NCBI GenBank assembly: GCA_030431385.1
Contig: JAUIJJ010000001.1
Coordinates: 1 to 36,452 of the forward strand
Length of the DNA stretch: 36,452 bases
Direction: 5' to 3'
DNA from: a bacterium
GTDB taxonomy: Bacteria > Sumerlaeota > Sumerlaeia > SLMS01
Part shown: positions 8,212 to 28,812 of the stretch, in pieces
How positions within the stretch are numbered: the stretch's first letter is position 1
How the letters are laid out: the number at the start of each line of letters is the position of its first letter
Made by a program: the position numbers and the translations under genes
The notes under the pieces: generated by a model
What the model was told of the DNA's origin: nothing
Seen by the model: only the letters and a program-made list of their open reading frames with translations
Databases searched by the model: none

Positions 8212-8248
8212 AAAATGGCGTGTGCAATTGCACACGCCATTTTTCTTT
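8212..8248 (+). terminator. Rho-independent terminator after nrnA (potentially bidirectional)
   Basis: A perfect 32-nt palindrome, AAAATGGCGTGTGCAA/TTGCACACGCCATTTT (8212-8243), gives a GC-rich stem GGCGTGTGC/GCACACGCC with an AATT loop. It runs into TTTTTCTTT and begins 36 nt after the nrnA stop. Confidence 0.8.
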
Positions 8249-8341
8249 GCGCAACGCTTGCACAGAAAGCGACCCGGAACGATGTCAAACGCGGCCAAGC
8301 CCACCCTCTCTTCAGGTATCAACGGCGAAACGAAGGAAACC

Positions 8342-9826
8342 ATGGACGTGCGCCGCGCCGACTGGCGCATCGGTCACGTGGTCTACCAAATCTTCCTCGA
8401 TCGCTTCGCGCCGTCTGACCGGCTCGACGAAAAGCGCGCCCTCTACGCCTCGCCTCGTCGCCTGATGAGCTGGGACGAGGAACCCTCGCGTGGTGCCTAT
8501 CTCCACGATGAGCACATCAGCGAAGCTGAGACCCAGTTTTGGGGCGGCGACTTGCACTCGCTCATGGGACAGCTCGATTACCTCCGCGACCTCGGGGTTG
8601 ATCTCGTCTACCTCAACCCGGTGTTCGAGGCGTTCTCCAATCATAAGTACGACGCGAGCGACTTCCGCAAGATCGATCCGGCCTACGGGACCAATGAGGA
8701 CCTCGGCGCGCTGAGTCGCCAGTGTCACGAGCGCGGCATGCGGCTCATGCTCGATGGCGTGTTCAACCACATCGGCAGGCGGTCGGCGCACTTCCAGTCG
8801 GCCATCGCGAACGGCAGCGGCAAGAACCGCGACCATTACTACATTGGAGAGAATTATCGGAACGGCTACCGGGGGTGGCGCAACGTGGCGAACCTGCCCG
8901 AGCTGAATCTGGAAAACCCCGATGTCCGAGAAATGGTGTATCGCGCGGAGGACAGCATCGTGCAGGGGTGGATTCGCGACGCGGGCATCGACGGCTGGCG
9001 GCTCGACGTCGCGCCGGACCTCGGCTTCGAGGTCCTCGGCGAACTGACCGACGCCGCGCACTCGGCCGACCCGCAGAGCTGCGTGATCGGCGAGACATGG
9101 AACTACCCGGAAGAGTGGCTGCACGTCCTCGATGGCGTGATGAACATGCACGCGCGGCTGCTGATCTTGAATCTTTGCGATGGGAAGATGGGGCCCGGCG
9201 CATTCGCCACGGCCTTCGAGCGCATGGTCGACGACAGCGACTATGAGGGGTTGCTGCGCAGTCACATGGTCCTCGACAACCACGACGTCCCACGCATCCA
9301 AACGCTCCTCGAAGACCCGGCGATGCTACGCATGGCGCGAGTTCTTCAGTTCACACTGCCCGGCTGCCCGGTGATTTACTACGGCTCGGAGCTGGGAATG
9401 AAGGGCGGCCACGATCCGCTCAATCGCGGGCCGATGCGATGGGAAACGGCAAACGACGAAAACGAGGACCTGACTTTCATCAAGAAACTGACGGCGATTC
9501 GGCGCGAGTTCGGGGCGCTGCGCTACGGAAACTACCGTAGGCTCGACGCCGAAGAATTGGTGGCGTTTTCGCGCACGACGGACTGCGCGCGCGACACGAT
9601 CCTGGTTTTCGCGAACCCCTCCGACGAGGAAGTCCACGACATTATGGCCGTGCGCAACTCGCGCCTTATGGACGTGGCACCGCTGGAATGCCTTCTCTCC
9701 GGCGATCACATCAGTATGCACTGCGGCGTTGCGGAAGTGACACTTCCACCCAAATCAATTCGGGTTTTCAGGACGTTGGATTGGGATCAGCCCGGCGGCT
9801 ACTCGCTCTACAAGCGCGTGCCGTAG
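8342..9826 (+). CDS. GH13 alpha-amylase-family glycoside hydrolase (cytoplasmic, no signal peptide)
   Basis: GH13 conserved regions are present: DGVFNH (I), GWRLDVAPD (II, nucleophile Asp), IGETW (III, acid/base Glu) and LDNHDVPR (IV). The ORF-track start at 8207 lies inside the terminator. I chose the ATG at 8342 (MDVRRADW..., preceded by GAAGGAAA); the ATG at 8282 is an alternative. Confidence 0.88.
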   Translation: MDVRRADWRIGHVVYQIFLDRFAPSDRLDEKRALYASPRRLMSWDEEPSRGAYLHDEHISEAETQFWGGDLHSLMGQLDYLRDLGVDLVYLNPVFEAFSNHKYDASDFRKIDPAYGTNEDLGALSRQCHERGMRLMLDGVFNHIGRRSAHFQSAIANGSGKNRDHYYIGENYRNGYRGWRNVANLPELNLENPDVREMVYRAEDSIVQGWIRDAGIDGWRLDVAPDLGFEVLGELTDAAHSADPQSCVIGETWNYPEEWLHVLDGVMNMHARLLILNLCDGKMGPGAFATAFERMVDDSDYEGLLRSHMVLDNHDVPRIQTLLEDPAMLRMARVLQFTLPGCPVIYYGSELGMKGGHDPLNRGPMRWETANDENEDLTFIKKLTAIRREFGALRYGNYRRLDAEELVAFSRTTDCARDTILVFANPSDEEVHDIMAVRNSRLMDVAPLECLLSGDHISMHCGVAEVTLPPKSIRVFRTLDWDQPGGYSLYKRVP

Positions 9827-10548: not shown

Positions 10549-13500
10549 ATGACGGACAAAGACAACAACCGCCTCCTGGACTATCACCAGCCTCCGATCG
10601 AGGACGTGCTTGCCGAACGCATCATGATCTTTGACGGTGCCATGGGCACCATGATCCAAGGCTACAGTCTTGAAGAAGAGGATTTCCGTGGCGATCGCTT
10701 TAAGGATCACGACCACGATCTGAAGGGGAACAACGACCTCCTCGTCCTCACCCGCCCGGAGATTATCCAAGCGATCCACAAGGAGTTCCTCGACGCCGGC
10801 GCCGACATCATCGAGACGAACACGTTCAGTTCTCAGCGCATTAGCCAGGCGGACTACGGGTTGGAGAAGTACAGCTACGAGCTCAACCTTGAGGCAGCAA
10901 AGGTTGCCCGTCGAGCCGTCGAAGCGAAGATGGCAGAAGACCCAACGCGCCCGCGTTACGTCGCCGGCTCCATCGGACCGACCAATCGCACCGCGTCGCT
11001 CTCCCCGGACGTGAACAATCCCGGCTTCCGCGCCGTGAGCTTTGACGATTTGGTCGCCGCCTACGACGAACAGATTCGCGGGTTGATGGATGGGGGCGTT
11101 GATCTGCTCCTCCCGGAAACGACTTTCGACACGCTCAACCTCAAGGCTGCGATCTACGCCATTGAGCAGTACTTCGAAAAGGCCGACGTCCGCGTTCCGG
11201 TGCTCCTGTCAGTCACGATTACCGATAGGTCCGGTCGTACGCTTTCCGGCCAGACGCTAGAGGCTTTTTGGTATTCCATCGAGCACGCCAAGCCGCTCGC
11301 CGTCGGGATTAACTGCGCGCTCGGTGCGGATGAGATGCGTCCGTATATCGAAGAGCTCTCGAACCTCGCGACCTGCCCGACCTTTGTCTATCCCAACGCG
11401 GGCCTCCCCAACGAATTTGGCGAGTACGACGACACGCCGGAACACATGGCAGGATTGCTGGGCGAGTTTGCGGAAGCCGGTTGGCTGAACATCGTCGGCG
11501 GCTGTTGCGGCACGCGCCCGGAACACATCCGCGCCATCGCCGACGTGATGGCGAAGCACCCACCTCGCGAGGTTCCCGAGCTGAAACCGCGCCCGCGCTT
11601 CAGCGGACTCGAACCACTCGTACTCACCGAACACTCCGGCTTTCAGATGGTCGGCGAGCGCACAAACGTCACCGGCTCCCCGAAGTTCAAAAAGCTGATC
11701 AAGGAAGAAAACTTGGAGGACGCGCTCGCCGTGGCCCTTCAGCAGGTCACCAACGGCGCGAACATGCTCGACGTAAACATGGACGAGGGCATGATCGACT
11801 CCGAAGAGGTCATGGAGCAGTTCCTGCACCTCGTCGTTGCCGAACCCGACATCGCGCGCGTTCCGATCATGATCGACAGCTCGAAGTTTTCAGTCATCGA
11901 GCGCGGCCTGCGCTGCCTTCAGGGAAAGTCGGTCGTGAACTCGATCAGCCTCAAAGAAGGCGAAGACGAGTTCCGTCGTCAGGCTCGAGAGATTCGCCGC
12001 TTCGGTGCGGCCACGGTCGTCATGGCGTTCGACGAAAAGGGTCAGGCCGATACCGCAGAGAGGAAAGTCGAGATCTGCGAACGCGCCTATAATATCCTGG
12101 TCGACGAAATCGGCTTCGAGCCGGGCGACATCATCTTTGATCCGAACATCCTCACCGTTGCGACGGGAATGGACGAGCACAACGACTACGCCGTAGCCTT
12201 CATCGAGGGCACGCGACAGATCAAGGAACGCTGCCCCGGTGCGCTGGTGAGCGGCGGCATATCCAACATCAGCTTCAGCTTCCGCGGCAACAACCGCGTA
12301 CGCGAAGCCATGCATGCTGCTTTCCTCTACCATGCGATCCATGCTGGCCTCGACCTCGGAATCGTGAACGCTGGGATGCTGGAGGTGTACGAGGAGATCG
12401 ATAAGGAACTGCTCGAATACGTCGAGGACGTGTTGCTAAATCGTCGCGACGATGCGACCGAGCGCCTTATCGATTACGCTGAGAAGGTGAAAGACGAGGA
12501 CGGCGGCACGACCAAAAAAAAGGAAACTCTCGAATGGCGAGAGGCTCCTGTTGGCAAGCGCCTCAGCCATGCTCTCGTGAAGGGCATCGTCGAGTTCATC
12601 GACGACGACACAGAAGAGGCGCGGCAGGAATACAACCGCCCGCTGGAAGTCATCGAAGGTCCGCTCATGAGCGGCATGAACATCGTCGGTGACCTGTTCG
12701 GCGACGGGAAAATGTTCCTCCCTCAAGTTGTCAAGAGCGCCCGAGTCATGAAGAAGGCCGTCGCCTACCTCATTCCCTTCATGGAAGAGGAGAAGCGGCT
12801 TTCCGGCAACACGGAAGATTCGCGCGCGCGAGTGCTCCTGGCGACGGTGAAGGGCGACGTCCACGATATCGGCAAGAACATCGTCGGCGTGGTCCTCGGT
12901 TGTAACAACTTCGAAGTCATCGACATGGGCGTTATGCAGTCCTGCGACAAAATCCGCAAGATGGCCCGCGAGAAGAAGGTCGACGCGATTGGCCTCAGTG
13001 GGCTGATCACGCCGTCGCTCGACGAAATGGTTCACGTCGCCAGCGAAATGGAGCGGGAAGGCTTCAAGATTCCCCTCCTGATCGGTGGAGCGACGACGAG
13101 CAAGATTCACACAGCCGTCAAGATCGCGCCGAAGTACTCCGGCCCCGTGGTGCACGTTCTCGACGCCTCACGCGCCGTGGCGGTCGTTCAGAGCCTCGTC
13201 GAGGAAGGCACGCGCGACGCCTTCGTCGAGAAGATCGACGAAGAGTATCAGGCACTCCGCGAGCACCACGAATCGCGGCAGAAGAAGATTCGGTTGGTTT
13301 CCCTCGATACGGCCCGCGCCAACAAGACGCGAATCGATTGGCGGAAGGCGGAGCTCGACACGCCAGAGTTCACAGGCACGAAGGTTTTCGACAACTACCC
13401 GCTCGAAGAAATCGCCGAGTACATTGACTGGTCGCCGTTCTTCCACACTTGGGAACTGCGTGGGGTTTACCCTGAGATTCTCAACCACGAGAAGTACGGC

Positions 13501-14304
13501 GACCGCGCCCGGGAACTGTTCAACGACGCTCAGGCAATGCTCAAAGAAGTCGTCTCGGGGAAGAAGCTCACCGCCCGTGGCGTCTGCGCGTTCTGGCCGG
13601 CCAACAGCGTTGGCGACGACGTCGAGATCTATACCGACGATTCGCGGAAGGAAGTCCTCACGACGATCCATTTCCTCCGCCAGCAGATCGAGAAAAGCGA
13701 CAAGCCGCACTACTGCCTCGCCGACTACATCGCGCCGAAGGAAAGTGGACAACCCGACTACATCGGCGGCTTTGCGGTCACGACGGGTCACGGCGTCAAC
13801 GAGCTCGCCGCGAAGTACGAGGCGGACCACGACGACTACAACTCGATCATGGTAAAGGCTATCGCCGACCGCCTCGCTGAAGCCTTCGCCGAGCTCATGC
13901 ACCGCAAGGCGCGCGAGTTCTGGGGTTACGGCAAGGGTGAGGCACTCAGCAACGAGCAGATCATCGCCGAGAAGTACCGCGGCATCCGCCCGGCGCCGGG
14001 CTACCCCGCCTGCCCCGATCACACGGAGAAGCCGACGCTCTTCACGATCCTCGACGCGGAAGCCAACGCGGGAATCGAGCTGACAGAGAGCTGCGCGATG
14101 ATGCCCGCCAGCTCGGTGAGCGGATTCTACTTCGCCCATCCCAAGGCACGCTACTTCAGCGTGGGCAGTCTCGGACGCGACCAGATCGAAGACTACCAGC
14201 AGCGCAAGGATGTGCCGCTGGAGGAAGTCGAGCGCTGGCTCTCCCCAAACCTCGCCTACGACCCCTCAAAACAACCCGCGCCCGAACCCGCAACAGTCGG
14301 CTAG
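10549..14304 (+). CDS. metH: cobalamin-dependent methionine synthase (5-methyltetrahydrofolate-homocysteine methyltransferase)
   Basis: All four modules are recognisable. They are the Hcy-binding domain with [11 protein letters not shown] (Zn Cys pair), the pterin-binding domain, the B12-binding domain with [11 protein letters not shown] (DxHxxG) and SGLITPSL, and the AdoMet-activation domain with [12 protein letters not shown]. Starting at the ATG at 10549 ([10 protein letters not shown]...) gives 1251 aa, a normal MetH length. The 61 upstream codons in the ORF track have no MetH-like sequence. Confidence 0.97.
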
Positions 14305-15966: not shown

Positions 15967-18186
15967 TTACTCCATCCCCCACATCGTCGTCTCGACATGA
16001 TCGGGGCGGACTTGCCGGATCGCGAAGAAGCGCCCCTGCGTAAACGTCGCCCCGATGCGGTTCCTCCCGCGATCACTGACTTGATCAAGCGCCGCACGCC
16101 ACGGCCCCGTGGGCTGGTCCGCATAGAACACCTGAATCAACGAGTCATCAACGCCATCAACTTCTCGATTGAGATAAGTAAACGTTAACGAAGTTGAGGA
16201 GAAGGAGCGGTCTGTATCCAGCTCCCACAGCAGCGCGATCGAGTCCTCGGGTGGGGCGAGGTTTTCCGTGATCGCCAGTGCCGCGTCTTCTCGATAGAGC
16301 GTCATCGTCGTAAAGGATGCGTCGCCGCCGGTGTACTTCACTTTCGCTCGAATGGAGGAGCCGAAGTCCAGCACGGGTGGGGTCCCGGCAACCGAGGCCT
16401 TCTTAGCCCGAGCGAATTTCGCGACGCCGTCGCCATGGACGACATAGGCCGCGCCGGTGAAGTTTCCGCCTTCGGGAACGTGGACCGGATCCGGCGCGAC
16501 GGCTGGGTTGTTGGCGTAAATCGCCGCTGCAGCGAAGTCGCCAAATCCGTCGAAATCGACATCGCCCCCCGCCTCCAATCCGAACCCGAAACCGTTCTGT
16601 GCATCAGCGCCGTGGACGACGACATCCGGCGTGTCGGTCGTGAGGTCGATGGTCCTGCCGCGGAGATCTGCCGAACCGTAGATCACAGAAATACTCCCTG
16701 CGTCGTCGCGGTCGCCGGTGGGTCCGTCGTTCATGATTGAGCCGACCAATACATCGTCGAGGCCGTCACCGTTGACGTCGCCGCAGCTCACCGAGATTCC
16801 GAGAACTGATCCGGCACCGTTTGCATCGACCGGTTCGCTGCGACCGAGGATCCGCGTCTCGCCGAGCGGCGAAGTTGCTCCGTCCGTATCGAGCGAAAAG
16901 CTCTCCCCGCCCAAGTCTGCCGCCCCCCAAATGATGTACGCCTCCCCCGTGGCGATGGGAGTTCCGCCCGGGCCGTTCGCGTTCGGAGCGGACACGACAA
17001 TATCGCCGAAGCCATCGCCATCGATATCTCCGACCGCGACGCTGTGGCCGAACCGGTCATCGATGTCATCGCCGGAGATTCGTGTCTCCCCCCAAGCCGT
17101 CGTCACTCCGCCGGTGGAAAGATCGACCTGCTGCTTCTCTAATGCTGCCGAACCGTAGACGATGAAGACTCTACCAGGGGAAGTCCCGGGAGCGAGCGGC
17201 GATGTGGCTCCGAATACGACGTCGTCATAGCCGTCGCCGTTGATGTCCCCCGAGGCGAGCGAGATGCCCGCTGCGCCGCGCATCTCGTCGCCGCTGATTC
17301 GCGTTTCACCGGCCTCGCTGAGCGGGCCGTCTGTGTTGAGATCAATGCGCCGCGCGCGAGACTGTGGCGCGCCCCAAATCACGTAGATGCGGCCAGTCTG
17401 ATCTTCGTCCAACCCTTGAGTCGGAGTTCCATCGTAGCGATCCGCGCCGGTGGAGGACATGAGCAAGTCGTCATATCCGTCAGCATTGAGGTCGCCAAAC
17501 GCCACGGAAAACCCTGCTGAATCGATCTTGTCGTCGCCGTAGATGCGCGTCTCGCGCCAGATACTGGTGAGGCCACCGGTGTTGAAATCGATTGTCTCGT
17601 TGCGAATTCCCGCGCCACCGAAGAGGAGTATCACCTCGCCGGTGGCGTCTTGGGTTTTCGAGTTGTTCAGGAACCCGTCGCCGAGAAATGCGCCCATCGC
17701 GAGGTCCGCAATTCCGTCGCCGTCGAAGTCTCCAGTCGCCACGGCGCGGCCCATCACGTCGCCGTTGTCGTCGCCGTAGATACGCGTTTCCCGCTCCAGT
17801 GAGCTCGTCGTCGCATCAAGATCATAGTCCTGCCCGCGGAGTTCCTCGCTGCCCCAGAAGACGTAGGCCTCACCGTTATCCGCATCAACGCCTTCGTCGA
17901 GATACCCGTCGCCACGGTAGACACCCACGATCAGATCGTCGATGCCATCGCCGTCGAGGTCGCCGAAGGCAATGCCGCTATGATCGCCGGAGCCGAGCAG
18001 GTCCTTGAGATCATCGCCGAGAATTTCTATGACAGGCACGGGGTCGGGATCAGCGAGGTCGATGACGGAGGGAATGGGCTCGCCCGCAGCCGCGCTGGCG
18101 AGAAGCGGGAGGGTGAGGGTGGCGAAGTAGAAGCTGCCGTACTTCATCGGAGCGTTTTCTACCTGAGTATACCGGCCGGGGACCAT
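15967..18186 (-). CDS. secreted FG-GAP repeat protein (integrin-alpha-like 7-blade beta-propeller) with a C-terminal beta-rich domain
   Basis: Seven Ca-binding-type loops are spaced about 60-70 aa apart: GDLDGDGIDDLIVG, GDFDGDGIADLAMG, GDLNADGYDDLLMS, GDINGDGYDDVVFG, GDIDGDGFGDIVVS, GDVNGDGLDDVLVG, GDVDFDGFGDFAAA. Several are preceded by ETRI(Y/S/L)G(D/R). The signal-like segment is MKYGSFYFATLTLPLLASAAAG. The start is either the ATG at 18186 (3 nt after the upstream stop) or the ATG at 18147. Confidence 0.9.
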   Translation of the reverse strand: MVPGRYTQVENAPMKYGSFYFATLTLPLLASAAAGEPIPSVIDLADPDPVPVIEILGDDLKDLLGSGDHSGIAFGDLDGDGIDDLIVGVYRGDGYLDEGVDADNGEAYVFWGSEELRGQDYDLDATTSSLERETRIYGDDNGDVMGRAVATGDFDGDGIADLAMGAFLGDGFLNNSKTQDATGEVILLFGGAGIRNETIDFNTGGLTSIWRETRIYGDDKIDSAGFSVAFGDLNADGYDDLLMSSTGADRYDGTPTQGLDEDQTGRIYVIWGAPQSRARRIDLNTDGPLSEAGETRISGDEMRGAAGISLASGDINGDGYDDVVFGATSPLAPGTSPGRVFIVYGSAALEKQQVDLSTGGVTTAWGETRISGDDIDDRFGHSVAVGDIDGDGFGDIVVSAPNANGPGGTPIATGEAYIIWGAADLGGESFSLDTDGATSPLGETRILGRSEPVDANGAGSVLGISVSCGDVNGDGLDDVLVGSIMNDGPTGDRDDAGSISVIYGSADLRGRTIDLTTDTPDVVVHGADAQNGFGFGLEAGGDVDFDGFGDFAAAAIYANNPAVAPDPVHVPEGGNFTGAAYVVHGDGVAKFARAKKASVAGTPPVLDFGSSIRAKVKYTGGDASFTTMTLYREDAALAITENLAPPEDSIALLWELDTDRSFSSTSLTFTYLNREVDGVDDSLIQVFYADQPTGPWRAALDQVSDRGRNRIGATFTQGRFFAIRQVRPDHVETTMWGME

Positions 18187-18189
18187 CGG

Positions 18190-18870
18190 CTAGCGGAAGC
18201 GAACCAGATCGGATGAGTCCACTACTTGGTCGAAATTCGAATCCTTGAACGAGTCGTCGACCGATGAAATTTGCCCGAGCAAATCAGCGAGGACGACCTC
18301 CATTGGGTCCTGTCCGGGGATCACGTGAATTCCTGTGATCTCGTCGACAGGCAGCACCTGAACAGGGTCCTGACCGATTACGGTGTCGCCGCTATCGACT
18401 CCCCTAAGCAGAATCGTGAAGGGCGCGGATGGCGCCCCGGTTTCGCTGGGAGTAAACTCAAAGTCGACGACCTCGCCGCTGGCGAAGCTCGTGTTCCCAA
18501 AAATGTCGGACACTGTGAGGTCACGTCGCCTGTTACCAGACTCACTGTCGTCTATCGCCGCCTGATTGCCCAAGGAGGGAGAGACAACGGTCGTGACGTC
18601 GTCACTGGAAGCCCATGTGTCCATCTTGCTCTCAGCGACTGAAGCGAAGTCGCCGGCTCCGTCCGGCCAACTCACCCGCACCTGAATGGCGCTCAGGTCG
18701 AGTTCGTTGTCGTAGATCGTCAGCCGCAGCTTGAGGGGCTGATCAACTTCTGCCGTCTGCTTGCCGTTGTAGTGCAGGTAAAGGCTGCGCTCCGGCGCGT
18801 CATCTCCGGCGGTTGCCAAAGAAGCGCCCAGCATCGTCGCCAGACCTAAGGTAATGAGTGTCTTCTTCAT
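18190..18870 (-). CDS. small secreted protein: cohesin-like beta-sandwich module plus a C-terminal dockerin-like Ca-loop
   Basis: The ATG at 18870 (MKKTLITLGLATMLGASLATAGDD) follows GAGGG, 20 nt after the upstream stop. Residues 58-203 (ORF numbering) are paralogous to the C-terminal module of the upstream 799-aa protein. The tail DSNFDQVVDSSDL fits D-x-N-x-D-x-x-V-D-x-x-D-L. Confidence 0.8.
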   Translation of the reverse strand: MKKTLITLGLATMLGASLATAGDDAPERSLYLHYNGKQTAEVDQPLKLRLTIYDNELDLSAIQVRVSWPDGAGDFASVAESKMDTWASSDDVTTVVSPSLGNQAAIDDSESGNRRRDLTVSDIFGNTSFASGEVVDFEFTPSETGAPSAPFTILLRGVDSGDTVIGQDPVQVLPVDEITGIHVIPGQDPMEVVLADLLGQISSVDDSFKDSNFDQVVDSSDLVRFR

Positions 18871-18890
18871 GAAAGCGCCCTCGTAGTGTT

Positions 18891-21290
18891 TTATCCTCCT
18901 GCGGAAACGCACAAGCCCGGTGCCTGAAGGCAGGGATCGATGCCAGGCGTCACGGGGAACCCGATCAAGGTATCGACCGTCAGAATCTCTATGGGGTCCT
19001 GACCGACCAAAGTGTCACCCAAATCCGCGCCCTGAAGCAGGAGGTCGAAGACCCCCTGCGTCGTCGGCTCGTACTCAAACTCGACCAGCATGCCGCTCGA
19101 AAAGCTTGTTACGCCCTGCAAATCGGCAGCGGTGATGGTGCGGTAAACGTGCCCCTGCTTTGTCAAGTCCTGCGCAGGCGACTGATCCAGTGCGGGCGAT
19201 ACGACGACTGTCACGTCCCCCCCATTCTCCCAAGCAGCTGACCCCATGGGGACGCTGCCGAGGTCGCCCGCACCCTCCGGCCAACTCAGCCGGACCTTCG
19301 TCGCGGAAATGTCGGTCGTGTTGTTGAGCAACTCCAGCCCGAGCCGCAGCGGGTCGCCCGACTGCACCGGACCGGCGGAGCTCTTAAGTAGCCGCAGCGT
19401 CGTACCCACTGGCGCCTGCGGCGTGAGGTCCGGCCCCATTGAGGTTACGGAAAGGTTTTGCAGTGTCACTTCGATGCCCGAATCGTTGTCGGAGGTATCC
19501 GAGTAGATGTAGTCGAAGGAGAGGAAAGCGGTCTCGCCATCCAGAACCTCCGGCGCCTCGAACCAAACGTGGTAAGTGCGCGGCGAGCCATCGAGCGGCA
19601 CGAGGGGGTCGGTGCCGGTGGATTCGATATTGGTGTAGGCGGAGGCGTTCAGCGATGAATCATTCATGCGCAAACGGAACGCCGGAACTTCGGTTTGTTG
19701 CGAGGGGTCCGCATTGGTGGCAACGTCGAAGGTGAAGTGATAGAGACGCCCACCCTCGAAGACGACTCCCTGCTCCGCTTCCGGTGAACCCCAGAAACCG
19801 AAGGTGGTCGTGTCGGCGTTCTTGCCGGTGGCTCCCGACAGGGAAAGGCCCGCAGTTGTCGCGCGAGAATTCGGCGAGGTTAGGAGCGTCGTGTCACGGA
19901 ACGTCCATCCAAAGTCGCCCATGCTGAAGTCGCGGGTTAGCTCGTCGCGCTCCTCGCCGAAGCCTGCCAGACTGATCTTTTCGAGGCTGACGAAATCGAG
20001 AGAAATCACGGCCTCCGGAGCATCTGTCGGGTCGAAGTTGAGGACCTCGAAATCGAGGATGAACTCATCCTCGTTCTCTGGCTGATTGAAGAACTGATGG
20101 TACTCGCGCTCGCCAACTCGGGGCGAGAACACTGCGTCGCCGGTCGAGCTGGCGACGAGCACTGAGCTCTGCTGGAAGCTTGCGGTCGAGGCGCGCATCC
20201 GAACGGTCGGCGCGAGGCGAATGTCGGCAACGTCGGAGCCAATCAGCCAGTTCGCGCGGAACAACCGGTCGTCGTCCGGAGCCGCACCGGTAATCCGCGA
20301 GCTACCGCCGATGACGAACTGCGGCGACTCCCAGAAGCTGTAGCTGTTGGTGTTGCTGGTGGTCATGATATTCAGCGCGCCGTCGCCATGGAAGCCGGTC
20401 GCATCAGGGAACGCGCCGGGGAGCAGGTAGGACCAGCCTTCTGCGTCATCGTCGAATGTGAATTCAATGTAAGGGAAGGGGTCCGGCGTTTCCGTCGGCG
20501 TGACGGTCGGCGTCGGGGTCGCCGTAGGCGTCATCGTCGGTGTATCCGTCGGCGTCATCGTTGGGGTCGCGGTAGGCGTCATGGTCGGTGAGGGAGACGG
20601 AGCCGGCGTGGGGGTACAGGACGGCGACATGGTTTGAGTTGGCGTTGGCGTTCGTGTCATCGTCGTCGTCGGCGTCGGCGTTTCGGTCATGGTCGGCGTG
20701 GGAGACGGCGTCGGTGTCGGAGTAGTTGCGCTGACGATTTCGAATGTGATCGAAGTGTCGATGTTTGCTGAGGTCTGCTGCACGCCACCGTCGCAGATCA
20801 GAACCGGCTGGGAAAACGGATTCGTCATCGGTCGGCCCTCGATTGTGATCTGCGATCCAACCGCGAGTGGCGTCGGAATGGTGAAGGTCAGCTCATAGAT
20901 CATCACATCGCGTGCCGTGTCGTCTGTCTGGACGCAACGAGCCGAAGTAAAGTTGCGCGAGACAAAGCCAGCGGTCTCCGCGAAGGGCGCCTGATCCAGC
21001 GGCGGGTTGAACGCGGTAATGCTCAGCCCCACGTCGGGGGTGTCCATCGCGGCGACAATCTCAACAGTATCGGGAAACAGAAGGTTATGGGCGAAGCCGC
21101 CGACGGCGCATTCCATGTCGCGCGCGCTGACCAAAAAGGAAAAGGAAGTCTCCCCTTCCAGAATGTCTGTACCCGCATTGGTGGCCTCGAAGAAGACTTC
21201 AGGAATCGGGCCGGGGCCGCGATCCTGAGCCGAAAGCCCCCCCGCAAGTGCTAGGAACGTAATTGCCAAAAGTGATACCAACTTGTTCAT
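18891..21290 (-). CDS. secreted multi-module protein: signal peptide, cohesin-like module, Pro/Thr linker, two tandem copies of an unknown ~165-aa domain, second cohesin-like module
   Basis: 799 aa. The signal peptide is MNKLVSLLAITFLALAGGLSA/QD and the start is preceded by AGGTGAGGA. Module boundaries come from my residue count. The cohesin-like assignment is by pattern (alternating hydrophobic beta strands such as FSFLVSARDMECAVGGFAHNLLFPDTVEIV and MIYELTFTIPTPLAVGSQITI) and is tentative. Confidence 0.85.
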   Translation of the reverse strand: MNKLVSLLAITFLALAGGLSAQDRGPGPIPEVFFEATNAGTDILEGETSFSFLVSARDMECAVGGFAHNLLFPDTVEIVAAMDTPDVGLSITAFNPPLDQAPFAETAGFVSRNFTSARCVQTDDTARDVMIYELTFTIPTPLAVGSQITIEGRPMTNPFSQPVLICDGGVQQTSANIDTSITFEIVSATTPTPTPSPTPTMTETPTPTTTMTRTPTPTQTMSPSCTPTPAPSPSPTMTPTATPTMTPTDTPTMTPTATPTPTVTPTETPDPFPYIEFTFDDDAEGWSYLLPGAFPDATGFHGDGALNIMTTSNTNSYSFWESPQFVIGGSSRITGAAPDDDRLFRANWLIGSDVADIRLAPTVRMRASTASFQQSSVLVASSTGDAVFSPRVGEREYHQFFNQPENEDEFILDFEVLNFDPTDAPEAVISLDFVSLEKISLAGFGEERDELTRDFSMGDFGWTFRDTTLLTSPNSRATTAGLSLSGATGKNADTTTFGFWGSPEAEQGVVFEGGRLYHFTFDVATNADPSQQTEVPAFRLRMNDSSLNASAYTNIESTGTDPLVPLDGSPRTYHVWFEAPEVLDGETAFLSFDYIYSDTSDNDSGIEVTLQNLSVTSMGPDLTPQAPVGTTLRLLKSSAGPVQSGDPLRLGLELLNNTTDISATKVRLSWPEGAGDLGSVPMGSAAWENGGDVTVVVSPALDQSPAQDLTKQGHVYRTITAADLQGVTSFSSGMLVEFEYEPTTQGVFDLLLQGADLGDTLVGQDPIEILTVDTLIGFPVTPGIDPCLQAPGLCVSAGG
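20478..20726 (-). repeat. low-complexity Pro/Thr-linker coding repeat (residues 189-271 of the 799-aa protein)
   Basis: It encodes TTPTPTPSPTPTMTETPTPTTTMTRTPTPTQTMSPSCTPTPAPSPSPTMTPTATPTMTPTDTPTMTPTATPTPTVTPTETPDP. The DNA shows imperfect 24-nt periodicity (MTPT[A/D]TPT units, e.g. ggcgtcatcgtcggtgt / ggcgtcatcgttggggt on the plus strand). Confidence 0.85.
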
Positions 21291-21330: not shown

Positions 21331-22329
21331 CTACTTCTTTTGGTAAACGCACCCTTGGAAACCGTGGGCGTCGAGGTAGTGAGCCGCCTCGTCGATGCCT
21401 GAGGTGCCGACATATTCAACGCCGCCTGTCCAAGGGAGCAGTGTCTCCAGTGCCATCCTGCCGAGGGGGGACGAATCGAATTCGGCCGGGTCCCAGCGCA
21501 GGATCAGTGAAACCTCTGTGGGAGGGATGGTCGCAAGCAATCCAAAGATTTCGCGCAACTCCGATTCGCTCCACTTTTGCAGCGCCATCGATACGGCCGG
21601 TCGCACGCCGTCGACGTGCAAGGTCCGATGCCACTTGGCTCGCAGCCGCGTCAGACGCTCGCGCCCTTCTGCGGTCTTTAAGTCCGCCTCCACGCCGACT
21701 GAATGCGGGCGCATCCGCAGCGCGTAGCCTCCCAGAAACGGATCGCGAAAGTAGTCGTCGATGTCGTCGTCTTCGATGGGGACAATCAGCGCGCCGATGG
21801 CGCGACACGTCTCGACGCAGTGGCGGCGGATTTCCTCGAGCTGTCCCGGCGACATCGCGCCGGGATTGCAATAGAGCAGGAGGTCGCCGCCCGTCGTTTC
21901 CGCGAGAAGCTCCGGCGAGAAAGTCGAACTGGCATCGAAGGAGGCACTCGCCCCGCGCCGCTTGGGCGACGCAAAAGGTTCGCACGGCGGCAGCGCAATC
22001 GGCACGGTGTCGCCTTCGCGGCTGCGCCCGTCTCGAAACGGGGGCTGGGGAAGATCGTTGATGCGCAGGATCATCGCCGCCTCCGAGACATCGGAAAAGC
22101 CGTGGCGCGTTCCTGCGCGGACAACAAGCACGTCGCCGCTTTCCGCCTCGAGCTCCTCGCCCGCCTCGAAAGTCTTCAGCCGGCCTTCGAGAATAAAGTA
22201 CACCTGATTGGCATCGGAGATGTGGGGCGCGATGGACTCACCAGGGGCCAGCGCGATGGGCTCCGCCTGTTCAATCACGCACCAGTTTGGGCGCATGGCC
22301 CGCAGCGATTGCAGATTCAGGAGTGCCAT
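21331..22329 (-). CDS. cupin-domain protein fused to an unknown ~190-aa C-terminal domain
   Basis: The N-terminal ~100 aa fit the cupin pattern: GESIAPHISDANQVYFILEG...GDVLVVRAGTRHGF. Motif 1 is degenerate (HxS instead of HxH). The C-terminal half has no motif I recognise. The start ATG overlaps the PfpI stop (TGATG at 22327-22331). Confidence 0.7.
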   Translation of the reverse strand: MALLNLQSLRAMRPNWCVIEQAEPIALAPGESIAPHISDANQVYFILEGRLKTFEAGEELEAESGDVLVVRAGTRHGFSDVSEAAMILRINDLPQPPFRDGRSREGDTVPIALPPCEPFASPKRRGASASFDASSTFSPELLAETTGGDLLLYCNPGAMSPGQLEEIRRHCVETCRAIGALIVPIEDDDIDDYFRDPFLGGYALRMRPHSVGVEADLKTAEGRERLTRLRAKWHRTLHVDGVRPAVSMALQKWSESELREIFGLLATIPPTEVSLILRWDPAEFDSSPLGRMALETLLPWTGGVEYVGTSGIDEAAHYLDAHGFQGCVYQKK

Positions 22330-22874
22330 CAGGAACCCGACCTGGCCGGCTGGTTCGAAAGGAACTCAAGGCATGCGCGCATCTGTGCAGGTAGGTCTGG
22401 CGGCGTCCGGGAGGTGATCAGATTGCCGTCGACGACCACTTCTTCGTCCAGGAACGTCCCGCCCGCGTTGATGAGGTCGGTCTTGATCGCGCCCACCGAG
22501 GTGAAGTTTTTTCCCCTCACGATGTCCGCCTCGGCCATCACCCACGGGCCGTGGCAAATCGAGGCGACGAGTTTGCCTTCGAGAAAAATGTCGCGGACGA
22601 ACTGCACCAAGTCCGCGTAGCGCCGCATCTTGTCGGGTGCGTAGCCGCCGGGGATAAACACGCCATCGTATTCGTGAGTGCTCACGTCCTCGACCGCTCG
22701 GTCTGACTTGAGAGGGTAGCCGTGCTTGCTGCGGTAGACGTGTTCGCGCAGCGGCGCGATCACGTCGACCTCCACGCCCGCTTCGCGAAAACGCAGAATC
22801 GGATACCACGCTTCCAGATCCTCGTAAATGTCCTCGGCCAATACCGCGATGCGGCGATTTTCAAGACTGCCCAT
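22329..22874 (-). CDS. DJ-1/PfpI family protein (class I glutamine amidotransferase-like)
   Basis: 181 aa with the nucleophile-elbow motif ASICHGPWVM, flanked by YDGVFIPGGYAPD and GNLITSR, typical of the PfpI/YhbO group. Confidence 0.9.
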   Translation of the reverse strand: MGSLENRRIAVLAEDIYEDLEAWYPILRFREAGVEVDVIAPLREHVYRSKHGYPLKSDRAVEDVSTHEYDGVFIPGGYAPDKMRRYADLVQFVRDIFLEGKLVASICHGPWVMAEADIVRGKNFTSVGAIKTDLINAGGTFLDEEVVVDGNLITSRTPPDLPAQMRACLEFLSNQPARSGS

Positions 22875-22895
22875 AGCAATAACCCCTTTCGGAAA

Positions 22896-23363
22896 CTACT
22901 TTCCTGCACCCCACGACATCTCGTCGGAATCGAGCCAGATCGTCACGGGCCCATCGTTGACGAGTTGAACGTCCATCATTGCGCCGAAACGACCGGTCTC
23001 GACCTTGCCGTCGTAGACCTCGCGCAGCACATCGAGGAACAGATCGAACATCCCCCGCGCCTGGTCGGGAGGCATGGCGCTGACGTAGCTCGGCCTGCGG
23101 CCTTTGCGCGCATCGGCGTAGAGTGTAAACTGAGAGACCGCGAGAATTCCGCCGCCGATATCTGCGATGGAGCGGTTCATCTTTTCTTCATCGTCGGAGA
23201 AGATTCGCAGATTCACGAGTTTCTCGGCAGCGGGCCGGAACAGCGCCTCGGTATCACCGGCGCCCAATCCCACGAGCACGACAATGCCGCGTCCGATACG
23301 CCCGATCACTTCGCCATCTACTGTGACTCTCGCCTCGGAAACGCGCTGAAGCAACAACCGCAT
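22896..23363 (-). CDS. dtd: D-aminoacyl-tRNA deacylase
   Basis: 155 aa. MRLLLQRVSEARVTVDGEVIGRIGRGIVVLVG, SQFTLYADARKGRRPSY and NDGPVTIWLD are the conserved Dtd signatures. Confidence 0.95.
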   Translation of the reverse strand: MRLLLQRVSEARVTVDGEVIGRIGRGIVVLVGLGAGDTEALFRPAAEKLVNLRIFSDDEEKMNRSIADIGGGILAVSQFTLYADARKGRRPSYVSAMPPDQARGMFDLFLDVLREVYDGKVETGRFGAMMDVQLVNDGPVTIWLDSDEMSWGAGK

Positions 23364-23718: not shown

Positions 23719-25773
23719 TTAGAAGATCACCCAGCTCTCGAAGTCGGAGGTCGGGGCGTCTGCCTGTACGGGGTTCGACCCTTGATCCTGCTCGTCGATG
23801 TTGAGGATGCCGTCATTGTCGAAGTCGCCATTGGCGTCTTGATCGAGTCCTCCGAAGTAGAAGAACTCCCAGTCGTCGTCTAGCATATCCATGTCGCTGT
23901 CCACAGCGGGCGGAACCGGCGGCAACTGATAGCCGACGACGTTCGCAATTCGAACCGGGAGCGGATCGCTGTCGTGGTTGTCCACGTCGACGAGTCCCTC
24001 AACAGTGATGATCGTCCCCGGGATGTAGGCTCCCATGAGCCCCGAGAGGCGGTAAGTCGTGGCGTCCTGCTGAAGGAGGAAACCGAATTCATCAATCGTG
24101 AGGGGGCCTTCGAGTGTCGTAATCGCCGGCGGAATCGCCGCAGCGAATGCCGCCGCGCTTGTGGCGACCAACGGGAGGTTTCCCACCCGGACTCCATCGG
24201 GAATCAACATCGGGTCGACCGAGCGGCCAGCGAAGTGATCTGCCAGCAGTTCAAGCATTGAGACACGTCCCGGCGTCGTTGAAAACCGGAGGTAATCGCT
24301 CACCAAATCCAGCATGGGCACCGTCACGGAGCTCGAAATCAGATCGTAGATTTCCGCCTCGTTCATGGTCGCGCGCAGATCGAAGACGATTGAAGCTTCA
24401 GGCCCCGCGCCCGGGGTGCCGGGAGTGAACTCTTCGCCTGTTAACTGCTCGTAGTAGAGGTTAAGAAGCAGCGCCTCGGCGGTGGTTCTAGCGTTCAGAA
24501 CTTCGCCGGCGGATGTATCAAAAATCCGCGCGTCGTAGATCGCGCGATAGGCGTCTCGCCAGTCCTCGAGGTCGAAGGCATCGCTGCACAAATCGATGAT
24601 TGGATCGATGCGAAGGCTTTGCGGCTGTTCCAGACCAAGCAGTACGCGACCGCTGCCGTCCTGGGCGCGGGCTCGAATGTAATGGAACTGCTCTCCGGAA
24701 GTTCGATAGGAAAAGGTTCCATCGTCAGTTTCCAGCCGGTGCGAAAGCGCTTCGCCGCCTGGCGTCAAGACATCCACCCGGAAGGTCGTTGGCCATGGCA
24801 GTTCCGGATCGGGAGTCAGCGGTGGAGGGCTCGCGCCGGCGGTGGTCTCTTGAATCTCTCCGCTTCGAAAGATTTCGACTGTTTTCAAATTCGGCGCGGC
24901 TGGGAAGCTGTCAGGGTCGTTCGCGTCAGTCCCGCGAAGATTCTCGTCCTCTGTGCTCCATGAGTCATTGTCTGGGTCAACCCACCCGGGGGGCAGGTCG
25001 TCTGGATCGTTGGGAATGAACGCATCCGTCCCGCGCAGAAACTCATCCAGATCATCGAGAGTGTTTCCGTTGAAGTCGCCCTCCGCCCGAAGCGGGTCCA
25101 AGCCAAGTTCGATTTCGATGCGGTCGGGGATATTGTCCTGATCGGTATCGACGCAAACAGGGCCTCCGAAGAGGTACGTAGCGATCTTAGCCGTCCCCAT
25201 GATCATCCCATCATTGCCGCGATAGGAAACGATGCTGTCCTTTGCGATGTGAATCGACTCCCCCGCATATATCATCGGCGGAGATCCATTGACCGAATAG
25301 GTAATTGCTATTCCGGCCTCTGGTGCATGGAAGGAGAGGTTCACTGTCGTTTCATAAAACCCGCCGGGAGGATTCACCTCGACCCGAAGTGGATCATACA
25401 CACCTGCGTCGCCAAAGTACGCAGTCGCTTTGGTGGCGCTGCGCTGGTTGCCGTAAACATGGTACTGTGTTGCAGGGAGTGGGAGCGGTATGTCCACATC
25501 GAGAGGCCCAAATGCCAAGAATCCCGCGCTGGGGTCTGGGTCGAGTCGGCCGACCTCAACGTTAAACCCATCGTAGGCCCCGACGCTGGTCGTATAGCCT
25601 TCTACCAATCGAGAATCAACAACCCGCGGCGAAGGATCATCAGTCACGGATGAATCGTAGACGACGACGTTCGCAACGGGGGCGTCGGCGAAGGAAATTG
25701 TGCCTGCGCCCACGAAGAGTGCGGCAGCGAAGCTCGCCCTGAGTGTCTCTTGCATGTACCTGTTCATTCGCAT
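23719..25773 (-). CDS. large secreted protein (684 aa) with acidic thrombospondin-type-3-like Ca-binding repeats; third gene of the giant-protein operon
   Basis: The signal-like N-terminus is MRMNRYMQETLRASFAAALFVGAGTISFADA. Acidic repeats are CVDTDQDNIPD, DPDNDSWSTEDENLRGTDANDPD and DQDANGDFDNDGILNIDEQD. The segment FYETTVNLSFHAPEAGIAITYSVNGSPPMIYAGESIHIAKDSIVSYRG resembles the chitobiase/hexosaminidase C-terminal-like beta-sandwich. The start lies 6 nt after the upstream stop. Confidence 0.85.
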   Translation of the reverse strand: MRMNRYMQETLRASFAAALFVGAGTISFADAPVANVVVYDSSVTDDPSPRVVDSRLVEGYTTSVGAYDGFNVEVGRLDPDPSAGFLAFGPLDVDIPLPLPATQYHVYGNQRSATKATAYFGDAGVYDPLRVEVNPPGGFYETTVNLSFHAPEAGIAITYSVNGSPPMIYAGESIHIAKDSIVSYRGNDGMIMGTAKIATYLFGGPVCVDTDQDNIPDRIEIELGLDPLRAEGDFNGNTLDDLDEFLRGTDAFIPNDPDDLPPGWVDPDNDSWSTEDENLRGTDANDPDSFPAAPNLKTVEIFRSGEIQETTAGASPPPLTPDPELPWPTTFRVDVLTPGGEALSHRLETDDGTFSYRTSGEQFHYIRARAQDGSGRVLLGLEQPQSLRIDPIIDLCSDAFDLEDWRDAYRAIYDARIFDTSAGEVLNARTTAEALLLNLYYEQLTGEEFTPGTPGAGPEASIVFDLRATMNEAEIYDLISSSVTVPMLDLVSDYLRFSTTPGRVSMLELLADHFAGRSVDPMLIPDGVRVGNLPLVATSAAAFAAAIPPAITTLEGPLTIDEFGFLLQQDATTYRLSGLMGAYIPGTIITVEGLVDVDNHDSDPLPVRIANVVGYQLPPVPPAVDSDMDMLDDDWEFFYFGGLDQDANGDFDNDGILNIDEQDQGSNPVQADAPTSDFESWVIF

Positions 25774-25779
25774 AGCGGG

Positions 25780-28700
25780 TTATCCAGGGATGATGATGCT
25801 GATTTGAAATGGTTCACGCACGTATTCGATCTCACCGGTTTCGTCGTCGAACTGCATGAAGAGATAGCGATAAGTCGCATCCTGAACGTGCCCAGAATCA
25901 CGATCTATAAAGAATAGATCAAAGTCCATCGTTGACGGGTTTTCGATATACTCAAAAAACGCGTCGTCCAGTACCATGCCGTTTCTGTTGATCGACTCGA
26001 TTAGCGGCGAGACAGCGATCCATGGCTGGTTCGGTTTGTCAACACGCTGGCGCCAAACCATAAAGGGCATCGCCGGGGTTGTGTAGTAATCAATACCTGC
26101 CTCGGTGCCGCCTCCTTCCAATATCTGGAGGGCGACGCCGCGAAGCGCACCGGATACGATGATTCTGCTAGGAGTGTAATCAATCACAGGAGGCAGTGGA
26201 CGCGCGTTCCATCGAAAATCCCCGGGGTCAGTCGCACCGTCGTTGAATGCCTTCGAAGCCCAAGTGAATGGTACGCGGTCGCTTTCCTTTGAAGCCCCAC
26301 TAATCGAAACCGCCTCGACGAAGACCTCGTAGTTGGTATTCTTATCTAGCGGATCGCCGTCACGATTTACTTCATCCACTGAGAGTGAAAACTCATTCAA
26401 TGTTTCGTCGTAGTTCAAATCGGCGATGCGGTATTCCTTGGGGCGCGCTTGCTTCTGGCCGTCGACCACAAAGTGAACAGCATAGTATTGAATGCCCGCT
26501 TTGGGCCCAATCCAATTCAAGGTAACGGACGGCGTCCCCAATCCGGTCGCGGTTGCGGAGATCAGCGTCGCGCTGGGAATCGTTCCCATATAGACGACAA
26601 TGGGCTGGAAGTATTGGGGCGAACCCAGATTGCCGTGCTTGTCGAGTGGGACGATTGAGTAACAAGCTTCCGTCGCGCTCTCTGGATGAAAGTTGTCCTT
26701 GAGAGCGAGCGAAACCCCGTCGCATGGAACCTCTTCAACCAACTCGTAGGTTTTGCAACCATCAACACTGCGGTAAAGGCGGTAACCCACTGCGTCGCCG
26801 TCGCAACCCATTGTAATCTGGAATGGTGCCATGTCGCCACCAGGGATCACTGGGACGAGACCCGGCCCTGTCTCATTCGGGCCGAGGGGGTCGCAGACCA
26901 AATCGTAGGAAGCAACTGTTGCCTCGAATCGATAGACCTGACGCGGGCTTCCGTCTTCCCAGAATGACGGAGGATCCACTGTAACAGTCGCCGTCGCGCC
27001 ATCCAAGGTCTCCGCGACGAATCGATAGGACGGAACGTCGTCCTGGTCCACGACGGATTCAAGTGGTTCCGCGTAGTAGGTAACCTGGTCGTTTGCAAGA
27101 AAATCGAACTCATAGAGTATACGCTCGAAAACAAGCTGGCCGTTTTGAGTGCGCTCGTAGAAGCGGCCCTTGGCGATAGACGGATGATCACGGCGGGCAG
27201 TCAGAAGCGGCGCCCATTCCGACTCGCGCGTGTCTGCCTGATCGACGACATTTCCAAATGCCCGAATCACGGGCCGTGAAATGCAAAACTCCGTGATACG
27301 CCCGGGAGCGGGGCCAACAACATCATCCAGTACGCCGTATACTGCTGGAGAAAGCGCGCTTTCGTTTCCGTGCTCATCGAGCGCCGAGACCGAATACCAA
27401 AACCCGGTACCCAACGCGGCGGAGTTCGGTTCGTAGTCCGCGTGATTCACCTTCGGAGCATCCGGAACGGCAGGCGCAGGAACTGTCGCGATCAAACCCT
27501 CAGTCAGACCATTAACATCAGAGAAGGGCCCTTTCTTAGCGGCATTCCCGTAGTTCTGATAGCGGTAAACCTTGTAGGCAACGGCGTCAGGTCCGAGATT
27601 GTCCCACATGACGGAAAGGTAAGGAACGTGGTCGGTGTCTTGAGCGGCAACTACGAAGACGCCCTTTACCATATCGGGTTCGACCGTGTCTCGGACGACT
27701 GCGACCACCGGGTTGCTAGGAAGCCCTTCGTTGCCGAGTAGGTCACGCGCAACTGCCCAGTAAGTACACGTATCACCCACTGTTAGGAGATCATCCTCAT
27801 CGAGCGTCTCTAGCCAGTCACCATCATCTGCATAGATGTATGTTTGATCAGGGTCTTCGTCCTCGATTGGGGAAGGTTCGAGAATGGGAACGCGGTTGAG
27901 CCGTACTAGCTCATTCTTCACCGTGTCGAAATCTTCGCCCGCTTCCAATCCGCGTGCGAGTTTGTAGATATTGAATCCGAAGGAGATCGTTGAAAACTCG
28001 ATCGCAGACTCTGCGACTTCCCAGTTCAGGTAGACGCGACGGTTCGCAGCCCGAGCTGGCGTGACGCCGTCGCGGCCCCGGAGGAACACCTCCTGAAGAT
28101 TTACAGGCGCTGGCAGTTGCACGACGTTCTGTACATCGACAGTGATCTGCCCTAGTGCATCCACTGGGTTGCCGGCGTTGTCACCTTGCCAAAGCTCATA
28201 AACGTAAGGCCCACTAGCGGGGTCGACGAAGTCGAGGTAACCGAGGCCCTCGACGAGTGCGAACCCATAGTTTGATTGAATCATGAAGGTGTGTTGCGCG
28301 CCCTTCGCGTCGGCGTTGTCCTCACCATCCAATGCGGCGATGACGCGTTGCGCGAACTCGTCCTGTGTGGCTGAGGGCGATCCGTGAATGCGAACGAAGT
28401 ATTCCTCAGCGGCATTGAGCGCGCGCTCCTCGCCAGGACGGTAGAAGATGCTCTTGATGAGTGTCGCGCTCCGAGTTCGTGATACGACGGAGACTTTCTC
28501 GCGATTGTTTGCGCCGTCCGTGCGGAAGATGACCGCGTTGGTCAGGTCTACTACGCCATCAAGTGTATCCCAGCGGAGCAAGACTCGCCGCCCCCAATCC
28601 TCATCGCCGCCCACGACTCCAGTAAAGTATACTGGAATGAGACTCGGTTGTGTCTGCGCCTGAAGTGCGGCTCCACCGGTCACGAGCGAAAACGCAACCG

Positions 28701-28806: not shown

Positions 28807-28812
28807 AGTTTC

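Follow-up and report, generated by a model that had tools for sequence, protein, structure and literature searches.

Three adjacent genes on the minus strand of the window (the whole stretch of DNA analysed, 36,452 nt) most likely form an ordinary surface-protein cluster that carries some orphan modules, and one in which a cohesin-dockerin assembly is not demonstrable. We read the trio as Sec-exported modular binding proteins that would act as an adhesion or glycan-capture set, with a probability of about 0.6. The ORF calls give proteins of 799 aa (A), 226 aa (B) and 726-739 aa (C), with the following features:

18891..21290, minus strand: gene A, exported modular protein, 799 aa (ORF)
21228..21290, minus strand: A signal peptide, aa 1-21, ending LSA before QD (inspection only)
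20727..21227, minus strand: A N-terminal lineage-specific beta-rich module, aa 22-188 (no Pfam match)
20490..20726, minus strand: A Pro/Thr-rich linker, aa 189-267 (read from sequence)
19956..20489, minus strand: M1, first CBM-like jelly-roll, aa 268-445 (phmmer, AlphaFold, Foldseek)
19395..19955, minus strand: M2, second CBM-like jelly-roll, aa 446-632 (phmmer, AlphaFold, Foldseek)
18930..19394, minus strand: shared orphan module copy 1, A aa 633-787, then C-terminal CLQAPGLCVSAGG (BLASTP to B)
18190..18870, minus strand: gene B, exported, 226 aa; signal peptide, shared module copy 2 and 36-aa tail (ORF and GAGGG ribosome-binding site)
18301..18738, minus strand: shared orphan module copy 2, B aa 45-190 in ATG numbering (BLASTP to A)
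18193..18300, minus strand: B acidic C-terminal tail, aa 191-226, with a single EF/F-hand-like loop, DSNFDQVVDSSD, at 18208-18243 (motif)
15967..18147, minus strand: gene C, exported seven-blade FG-GAP propeller with C-terminal beta-rich domain (alternative start 18186)

The preliminary description of this DNA had presented three co-directional signal-peptide genes with short spacers, and the ORFs and spacers are as it claimed. By inspection of the sequence, each protein begins with a Sec signal peptide: MNKLVSLLAITFLALAGGLSA followed by QD in A, MKKTLITLGLATMLGASLATA followed by GDD in B, and MKYGSFYFATLTLPLLASAAA followed by GEP in C. There are two options for the start of B, a GTG that gives 18190..18912(-) and an ATG after the GAGGG ribosome-binding site that gives 18190..18870. 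With the ATG start, B lies 20 nt from the TAA of A, and the spacer between B and C is 3 nt (C start at 18186) or 42 nt (C ATG at 18147). Such tight spacing suggests that A, B and C are co-expressed, and from spacing alone they would also be co-transcribed. Surface location, and any contact among the three proteins, we infer. Polysaccharide-biosynthesis genes are present in the same window. A MetH-anchored search found no synteny, with a best match of 65% identity (Sumerlaeia, Nitrospirales).

In BLASTP, A aa 647-787 and B aa 45-190 align over 146 aa with 45% identity (E=1e-37), which bears out the paralogy proposed earlier between the C-terminal module of A and the core of B; the module coordinates given then (18936-19352 in A and 18304-18741 in B) are also correct. 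The two copies sit about 190 nt apart in the DNA and have 55% nucleotide identity, with third codon positions near saturation and second positions best kept (identity 0.56/0.69/0.40 by codon position). From these values and a dN/dS of about 0.4, both copies appear to be constrained coding sequence, and the duplication, as judged from the sequences, is old. B would be a free-standing copy of the A end module, produced by local duplication of the 3′ end of A, to which a separate signal peptide and a short acidic tail were later added.

The shared module has no other relative in 1.84 billion representative proteins (exhaustive profile search), GTDB genomes or JGI metagenomes. Searches of the same three collections and of 5.8 billion clusters likewise gave no orthologue of B. 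Two repeat proteins matched stretches of 20-50 residues of the module profile (the VxVxWPxGxGD region in P0123), and these were judged spurious. A word-index homologue search with B returned B alone and missed the A paralogue, because the two copies have no 5-mer in common. A six-frame HMM search of the window revealed no further copy of the shared module, of the M module or of a cohesin, and hhalign detected no relation of the shared module to the A head or to the M family. AlphaFold models B as all-beta at a pLDDT of about 46, and Foldseek with this poor model returned no match below E=0.086 and none to a cohesin.

One possible explanation for B is that it is a mere by-product of tandem duplication without a role of its own, in which case the trio would be three surface proteins brought together by chance, with no relation to one another. 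The proximity of the two copies would fit, as would the lack of a B homologue elsewhere and of conserved partners in the neighborhoods of homologues. However, B retains an intact ORF, a ribosome-binding site and a canonical signal peptide, its second codon positions are the best conserved (with the dN/dS given above) despite the age of the duplication, and its tight spacing suggests co-expression with its neighbors. We consider this explanation unlikely.

The preliminary description had recognised no CBM in the cluster, a view that no longer holds: in the center of A, AlphaFold gives aa 270-622 a pLDDT mostly above 80-90, and A aa 268-632 is confidently modelled as a tandem of CBM4/15/16/22-like jelly-rolls, M1 and M2. 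Foldseek matches M1-M2 with probability 1.0 and a target-normalised TM of 0.55-0.67 to CBM4-2, CBM15, CBM16 and BiXyn10A CBM1 (structures 1gny, 4qpw, 2zey, 2y6j and 1k42). Matches to M1 also include CBM22, reelin, MAM and Eph LBD, and the tandem as a whole matches reelin repeats, SGBP-B and malectin-like ectodomains. In modelled fold, the region is therefore like the galactose-binding-domain-like jelly-rolls of CBM4, CBM22, CBM15 and CBM16, the subrepeats of reelin, malectin-like ectodomains and SGBP-B of Bacteroides. At the sequence level, phmmer connects M1 and M2 to homologues at 1e-10 to 1e-41, and the two detect each other at an iE of about 1e-4. For 19 members of the M family, no Pfam family was matched at E<=0.1, and no PDB sequence was matched either, so that the case for glycan binding is one of fold resemblance, from which M1-M2 may be expected to bind glycan.

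The remainder of A is lineage-specific. The head, aa 22-188, is modelled with nine strands at a pLDDT of 25-64; the modules at the two ends of A are modelled as all-beta, at a pLDDT of 25-60. No relative of the head was found in GTDB genomes, JGI metagenomes or a word-index search with the Pro/Thr linker removed; this last search added a single M-family member and likewise gave no relative of the end module. The linker was the source of most spurious matches in the homologue search with A, and in searches of PDB sequences with A and B as single sequences and with module profiles it yielded only noise. As a full-length protein, A matches only itself.

In other organisms the M-tandem is found at the extreme C-terminus, behind a Pro/Thr linker, whereas in A it is internal. 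The heads that precede it are S8, C25 and M14 peptidases, a GHL10 enzyme, a GEVED protein and three FG-GAP propeller proteins; most are peptidases or propellers rather than glycosidases. In one genome, three consecutive genes all end in the M-tandem. Gene fusion in these organisms links the M-tandem to FG-GAP propellers, the kind of protein encoded by gene C. Such a distribution is typical of a module that different proteins share for targeting or anchoring. Two observations speak against carrying this over to the trio: the internal place of the M-tandem in A, and the neighborhoods of four homologues, which have no conserved partner genes. Much like many CBMs, M1-M2 sits behind a Pro/Thr linker, but it differs from CBM families in having no Pfam CBM membership and in occurring, among its homologues, always as a C-terminal pair and mainly on peptidases and propellers. 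This distribution points to a role in anchoring or targeting other than the classical one of bringing an enzyme to its substrate.

The CBM-like fold of the models also raises the idea of an accessory set for polysaccharide processing, in which the jelly-rolls would direct A to an external polymer, with the orphan modules as unrecognised catalytic or substrate-disrupting domains. A protein with a GHL10 domain does carry the M-tandem, and the window contains a gene of the alpha-amylase family at 8207-9826. That gene, however, is about 9 kb from the trio and on the other strand, the M-tandem is mostly joined to peptidases and propellers, and Pfam and NCBIfam detect no catalytic family in A, B or C. 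We place little credence in this idea.

Gene C is the one member of the trio with a recognised family. Across whole proteins and isolated pieces, FG-GAP alone was matched in Pfam and NCBIfam. C reaches E=6e-41 and 138 bits (cut-off 22.1). The HMM finds six stretches in C, and the protein contains seven D-x-[DN]-x-[DN]-G-x-x-D loops, one in each blade and 72-83 aa apart (aa 63, 140, 219, 301, 374, 457 and 529). The earlier assignment of a seven-blade FG-GAP propeller with Ca loops is thereby confirmed. The propeller spans about aa 40-560 and aligns to the propellers of integrin alpha-V, alpha-IIb and alpha-5 at E down to 5e-10. In its seven blades and DxDxDGxxD Ca loops, C is like integrin-alpha-type FG-GAP propellers (PF01839/PF13517) and bacterial FG-GAP/VCBS surface proteins. 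Unlike integrins, it has no integrin leg or transmembrane region, and it has its own C-terminal beta-rich domain at aa 561-726. The sole match of this domain is a weak, sub-threshold one to the fimbrillin MatB; against the equivalent region of P0005 only 31 residues match (pairwise E=9e-5).

The preliminary description had proposed a cohesin/dockerin-style scaffold for these genes. Divergent cohesin modules would be joined to the loop-helix of B or to the Ca loops of C, and so bring A, B and C together. We find this quite improbable. With Pfam at E<=10 and NCBIfam, neither A, B nor any isolated module matched cohesin, dockerin or EF-hand. A profile of the shared module likewise recovered no cohesin from PDB sequences at E<=10, whereas a control cohesin profile recovered ScaB and other solved cohesins at E 2e-13 to 1e-2. 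The preliminary description had itself named the lack of significant cohesin or dockerin profile matches as grounds for refutation, and on that condition the idea fails at the sequence level. The loops of C are also of the wrong kind for it, as FG-GAP loops in integrin structures are beta-hairpin sites within the propeller and not free loop-helix units. In its favor, the Pro/Thr-linked modular architecture is typical of scaffoldins, and P0111 is a real non-cellulosomal example.

The sole positive signal for a cohesin module comes from hhalign. Aligned to a validated cohesin profile, the shared module gives 112-115 co-linear columns with a weak score of 17.5-22 (E 0.008-0.065), and the best figure, for copy 1, is an equally weak 21.7 (E=0.0078). 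Scores of this size were reached by 3/300 and 2/200 column shuffles (about 1%). The signal is confined to the shared module, with none of the other beta modules of the cluster above 13. In contrast, a cohesin against a cohesin as positive control scored 49.2 (E=8e-8), and the B module alone reached only 12-14. The shared module resembles cohesin (PF00963) in its length of about 150 aa, its all-beta fold, as predicted at low confidence, and its place in a Pro/Thr-linked exported protein, and the alignment covers its 'G-D-x-hydrophobic strand ... hydrophobic-x-hydrophobic-x-[YFW]-[DP]' region. It nevertheless fails every profile threshold, and it neither recovers solved cohesins nor is recovered by them. 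Of the earlier suggestion that this module is cohesin-like, only the weak co-linear alignment stands. For the N-terminal module of A, which had been given the same label, hhalign gives no signal (score 11.7 over a short alignment) and Pfam no match, and the label is not supported.

No dockerin partner for the shared module was identified. The tail of B was the candidate, and its motif, DSNFDQVVDSSDL at 18205-18243, does fit loop positions 1, 3, 5, 8, 9, 12 and 13 as described previously: aa 210-221 supply D1, N3, D5, V8, D9 and D12, followed by L-V-R-F. When mature B is shuffled, 0.13% of the shuffles contain a strict loop pattern that was defined post hoc. The dockerin identity does not follow from this fit, as there is one loop and no profile match; neither the tail alone nor whole B matched dockerin, EF-hand or any other Pfam family at E<=10. 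Dockerins (PF00404) consist of two Ca-binding repeats flanked by helices, usually with a conserved Gly first (PMC2930009), and F-hand loops are described in dockerins (PMC3821032). Where a dockerin has two loop-helix repeats in about 60-70 aa (PMC2930009), the B tail has a single loop, with K in place of the canonical G before D1 and Q in place of G6. The helix after the loop is cut off by the stop codon, as the protein ends at aa 226, 5 residues past loop position 12. AlphaFold models the tail as disordered (pLDDT 23-33), and the A copy of the module is without such a loop tail. It is very improbable that the duplicated module is an extremely divergent cohesin that assembles A, B and the propeller, through the one-loop tail of B or another partner, on the surface of a bacterium whose lineage has no close relative sequenced; if true, such one-loop pairing would extend the sequence range and minimal requirements of cohesin-dockerin interactions, for which the present evidence is weak.

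Under our preferred reading of an exported adhesion or glycan-capture set, A would run from its signal peptide through the lineage-specific beta-rich head, an 80-residue Pro/Thr spacer and the two jelly-rolls to the lineage-specific end module. The tandem jelly-rolls would bind glycan. Their ligand may be an envelope polysaccharide of the cell itself, which would make them an anchor, or a polymer from outside; the spacer would hold the head away from their binding site. C, as an integrin-alpha-like seven-blade Ca-binding propeller with a C-terminal beta-rich domain, would provide Ca-dependent ligand binding, and A and B may touch each other through the duplicated module, a candidate protein-protein contact. 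As it stands, the trio is one more exported modular binding-protein cluster of an uncultivated bacterium, of use mainly for annotation. The M-tandem belongs to an unannotated family found at the end of many large secreted proteins across several uncultivated lineages; this family may serve widely as a module for surface anchoring or targeting and would merit a Pfam entry.

Three co-directional ORFs on the minus strand (15967-21290), here called A, B and C, encode proteins whose N-termini read, by inspection, as Sec signal peptides with Ala-x-Ala-type cleavage sites. With a probability of roughly 0.6, we read them in general terms as a set of exported modular binding proteins. The ORFs are as follows.

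18891-21290, minus strand: A, ORF of 799 aa
18190-18912, minus strand: B, ORF from a GTG start
18190-18870, minus strand: B from an ATG start, 226 aa, the ATG following a GAGGG ribosome-binding site
15967-18186, minus strand: C, ORF, with an alternative ATG start at 18147

B more plausibly starts at the ATG, which lies 20 nt downstream of the TAA of A. The ATG of C at 18147 opens a canonical signal peptide, and the B-C spacer is 3 or 42 nt depending on the C start. The three closely spaced signal-peptide genes are thus as the preliminary description had them, and every coordinate it quoted is exact. Genes for a cupin-domain protein, a DJ-1/PfpI protein and a D-Tyr-tRNA deacylase (21331-23363, minus strand) intervene between this cluster and the other, upstream cluster of exported proteins, so the two probably form separate units of a long run of genes in the same direction.

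Protein A was divided by domain-wise phmmer comparison with retrieved homologues and by its AlphaFold model.

aa 1-21: signal peptide
aa 22-188: beta-rich head
aa 189-267: Pro/Thr linker
aa 268-445: module M1, related to M2
aa 446-632: module M2, related to M1 (M1-M2 tandem at 19395-20489, minus strand)
aa 633-787: module shared with B
C-terminal end: short, Cys-containing

Within A, relatives were found for M1-M2 only (database proteins P0002-P0010, P0015, P0018 and P0124), and in every one of these the tandem ends the protein and is preceded by a PT linker. The heads upstream of it include subtilase (S8), C25 and M14 peptidases, a GHL10 enzyme, a GEVED protein, an InlB-B-repeat protein and three FG-GAP propeller proteins; in GCA_964437365.1, the tandem terminates each of three consecutive large genes. 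Large secreted proteins with M1-M2-type tandems lie at three loci.

L084: 8001-11771, 12041-15769 and 15906-19771
L082: 8001-11159
L085: 8001-11267

The M1-M2 family has neither a Pfam model nor a PDB sequence match. In the AlphaFold model (13-row alignment), aa 270-622 have pLDDT mostly above 80-90, and Foldseek matches the tandem to reelin repeats, Bacteroides SGBP-B, MAM and Eph ligand-binding domains, malectin-like tandem ectodomains and, with probability 1.0 and target-normalised TM of 0.55-0.67, single CBM4-2, CBM15, CBM16 and xylanase CBM structures. As modeled, the center of A consists of two CBM-like jelly-rolls at fold level, and M1-M2 represents a new sequence family of known fold. 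Given these matches, the earlier statement that no recognisable CBM is attached is incorrect as far as fold is concerned.

The C-terminal module of A is indeed paralogous to the core of B, with 45% identity over 146 residues (A aa 647-787, B aa 45-190; E=1e-37). The copies are 55% identical in DNA, with identities of 0.56/0.69/0.40 at codon positions 1/2/3 and a dN/dS of ~0.4, which indicates an old local duplication with protein-level constraint kept on both copies. No additional copies occur within the window. A word-index search with B returned B alone, and no shared module turned up among 185,579 GTDB species genomes or in JGI metagenome contigs. When an HMM of both copies was run exhaustively against 1.84 billion representative proteins, it returned the two window proteins and two repeat proteins, the latter rejected as relatives, being matched through short profile stretches. 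Within their reach, the search tools used returned no relative for the head of A either. Head and shared module are both orphans, a frequent situation in deep-branching uncultivated lineages.

C matches Pfam FG-GAP strongly (E=6e-41) and carries seven D-x-[DN]-x-[DN]-G-x-x-D loops spaced 72-83 residues apart, in agreement with its initial assignment as a propeller with Ca loops. In integrin alpha subunits such loops sit in beta-hairpins within the propeller blades, and those of C do likewise; they are not free loop-helix units. C is an ordinary new member of the FG-GAP family. The Pfam profile of fimbrillin MatB matches its C-terminal beta-rich domain (15970-16470, minus strand) below threshold (E=8e-4; 19.7 bits, cut-off 27), and the domain shares a short motif, T-x-x-Y...GPW, with the equivalent post-propeller region of P0005.

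The preliminary description proposed a non-cellulosomal cohesin/dockerin-style surface scaffold. Its exported modular set, duplicated module and propeller stand; its cohesin-type modules and dockerin-like tail find no support at the sequence level, since A, B, the isolated modules and the isolated tail have no cohesin, dockerin or EF-hand match in Pfam or NCBIfam even at E<=10. A search of PDB sequences with the shared-module profile also found no cohesin. A control profile (A4), built from seven Pfam-annotated cohesin modules of P0111, a real non-cellulosomal cohesin example, and P0067, recovers solved ScaB and other cohesins (E=2e-13 to 1e-2). In profile-profile comparison, A4 aligns co-linearly with the shared module over 112-115 columns, scoring 18.9 (E=0.038) against the two-sequence profile and 21.7 (E=0.0078) against A's copy alone; the score was equalled or exceeded in 3 of 300 column shuffles, and an alignment of 100 or more columns arose in none. 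Adding a solved ScaB cohesin left the picture unchanged (17.5-19.4; 2 of 200 shuffles). The cohesin profile scored 12-14 against B's copy alone and at most 13, in short alignments, against the A head, M1, M2 and the C-terminal domain of C; a cohesin-to-cohesin positive control scored 49 (E=8e-8). The match is thus particular to the shared module, a weak hint that does not establish membership. The models of B (mean pLDDT 46) and of the head and end module of A (pLDDT 25-60) have low confidence and suggest an all-beta fold for B and the end of A; Foldseek with the B model found no cohesin and no match below E=0.086.

B does carry the tail motif DSNFDQVVDSSDL (18205-18243). A dockerin comprises two Ca-binding repeats flanked by helices and in most cases begins with a conserved Gly (PMC2930009; for their F-hand loops, PMC3821032), and P0111 ends in such a two-repeat module. 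The B tail, in contrast, has one loop, with K before D1, Q in place of G6 and five residues from loop position 12 to the protein end; its pLDDT is 23-33. A strict loop motif, set post hoc, was found in 0.13% of shuffles, so the match is not trivial, yet one acidic loop in a protein of 12% Asp is thin evidence.

Among 185,579 GTDB species representatives, none exceeds 65% identity to the MetH encoded at 10549-14301 (plus strand), and the best matches, a Candidatus Sumerlaeia MAG and a Nitrospirales MAG, share no downstream synteny; the contig therefore belongs to a lineage that lacks a close sequenced relative. In the upstream cluster, a 684-aa exported protein (23719-25773, minus strand; no Pfam match at 1e-3) has acidic Ca-loop motifs paired at aa 209 and 233 and at aa 625 and 650 (~24-25 aa apart), with the DxDxDxxxDxxE...G(T/L)DP pattern of bacterial thrombospondin-type-3-like repeats, more EF-hand-like than the single loop of B. 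Just upstream on the same strand, two very large ORFs of 1008 and 1378 aa (25780-32949), the latter with a signal-peptide-like N-terminus, have no Pfam family except a sub-threshold fn3 match and no copy of the shared or M modules. Genes at 171-7008 for sugar-nucleotide and polysaccharide biosynthesis (NTP transferase, DegT-type aminotransferase, 4,6-dehydratase, Wzx/MurJ-like flippase, GT4 and GT2 glycosyltransferases) could be the source of an envelope glycan bound by surface proteins.

If A, B and C are exported binding proteins, the tandem jelly-rolls would most plausibly hold A on glycan, with the PT linker as spacer, and the propeller of C would bind ligand in a Ca-dependent manner. In other bacteria, unrelated heads commonly have such a tandem at their C-terminal end, which suggests that M1-M2 is a shared module for surface targeting or anchoring, possibly directed to the cell's own envelope polysaccharide. 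Three other proteins have FG-GAP propellers fused to a tandem of this family, which ties A loosely to C in function, but weakly, since the tandem is promiscuous. The duplicated module may be a candidate contact between A and B. A genuine cohesin/dockerin-like mechanism seems improbable to us, the remaining probability being spread over other alternatives. Should it hold, it would still be a variation on a known kind, since non-cellulosomal cohesin and dockerin modules are already described as widespread (Peer et al. 2009, as cited in PMC10066038).
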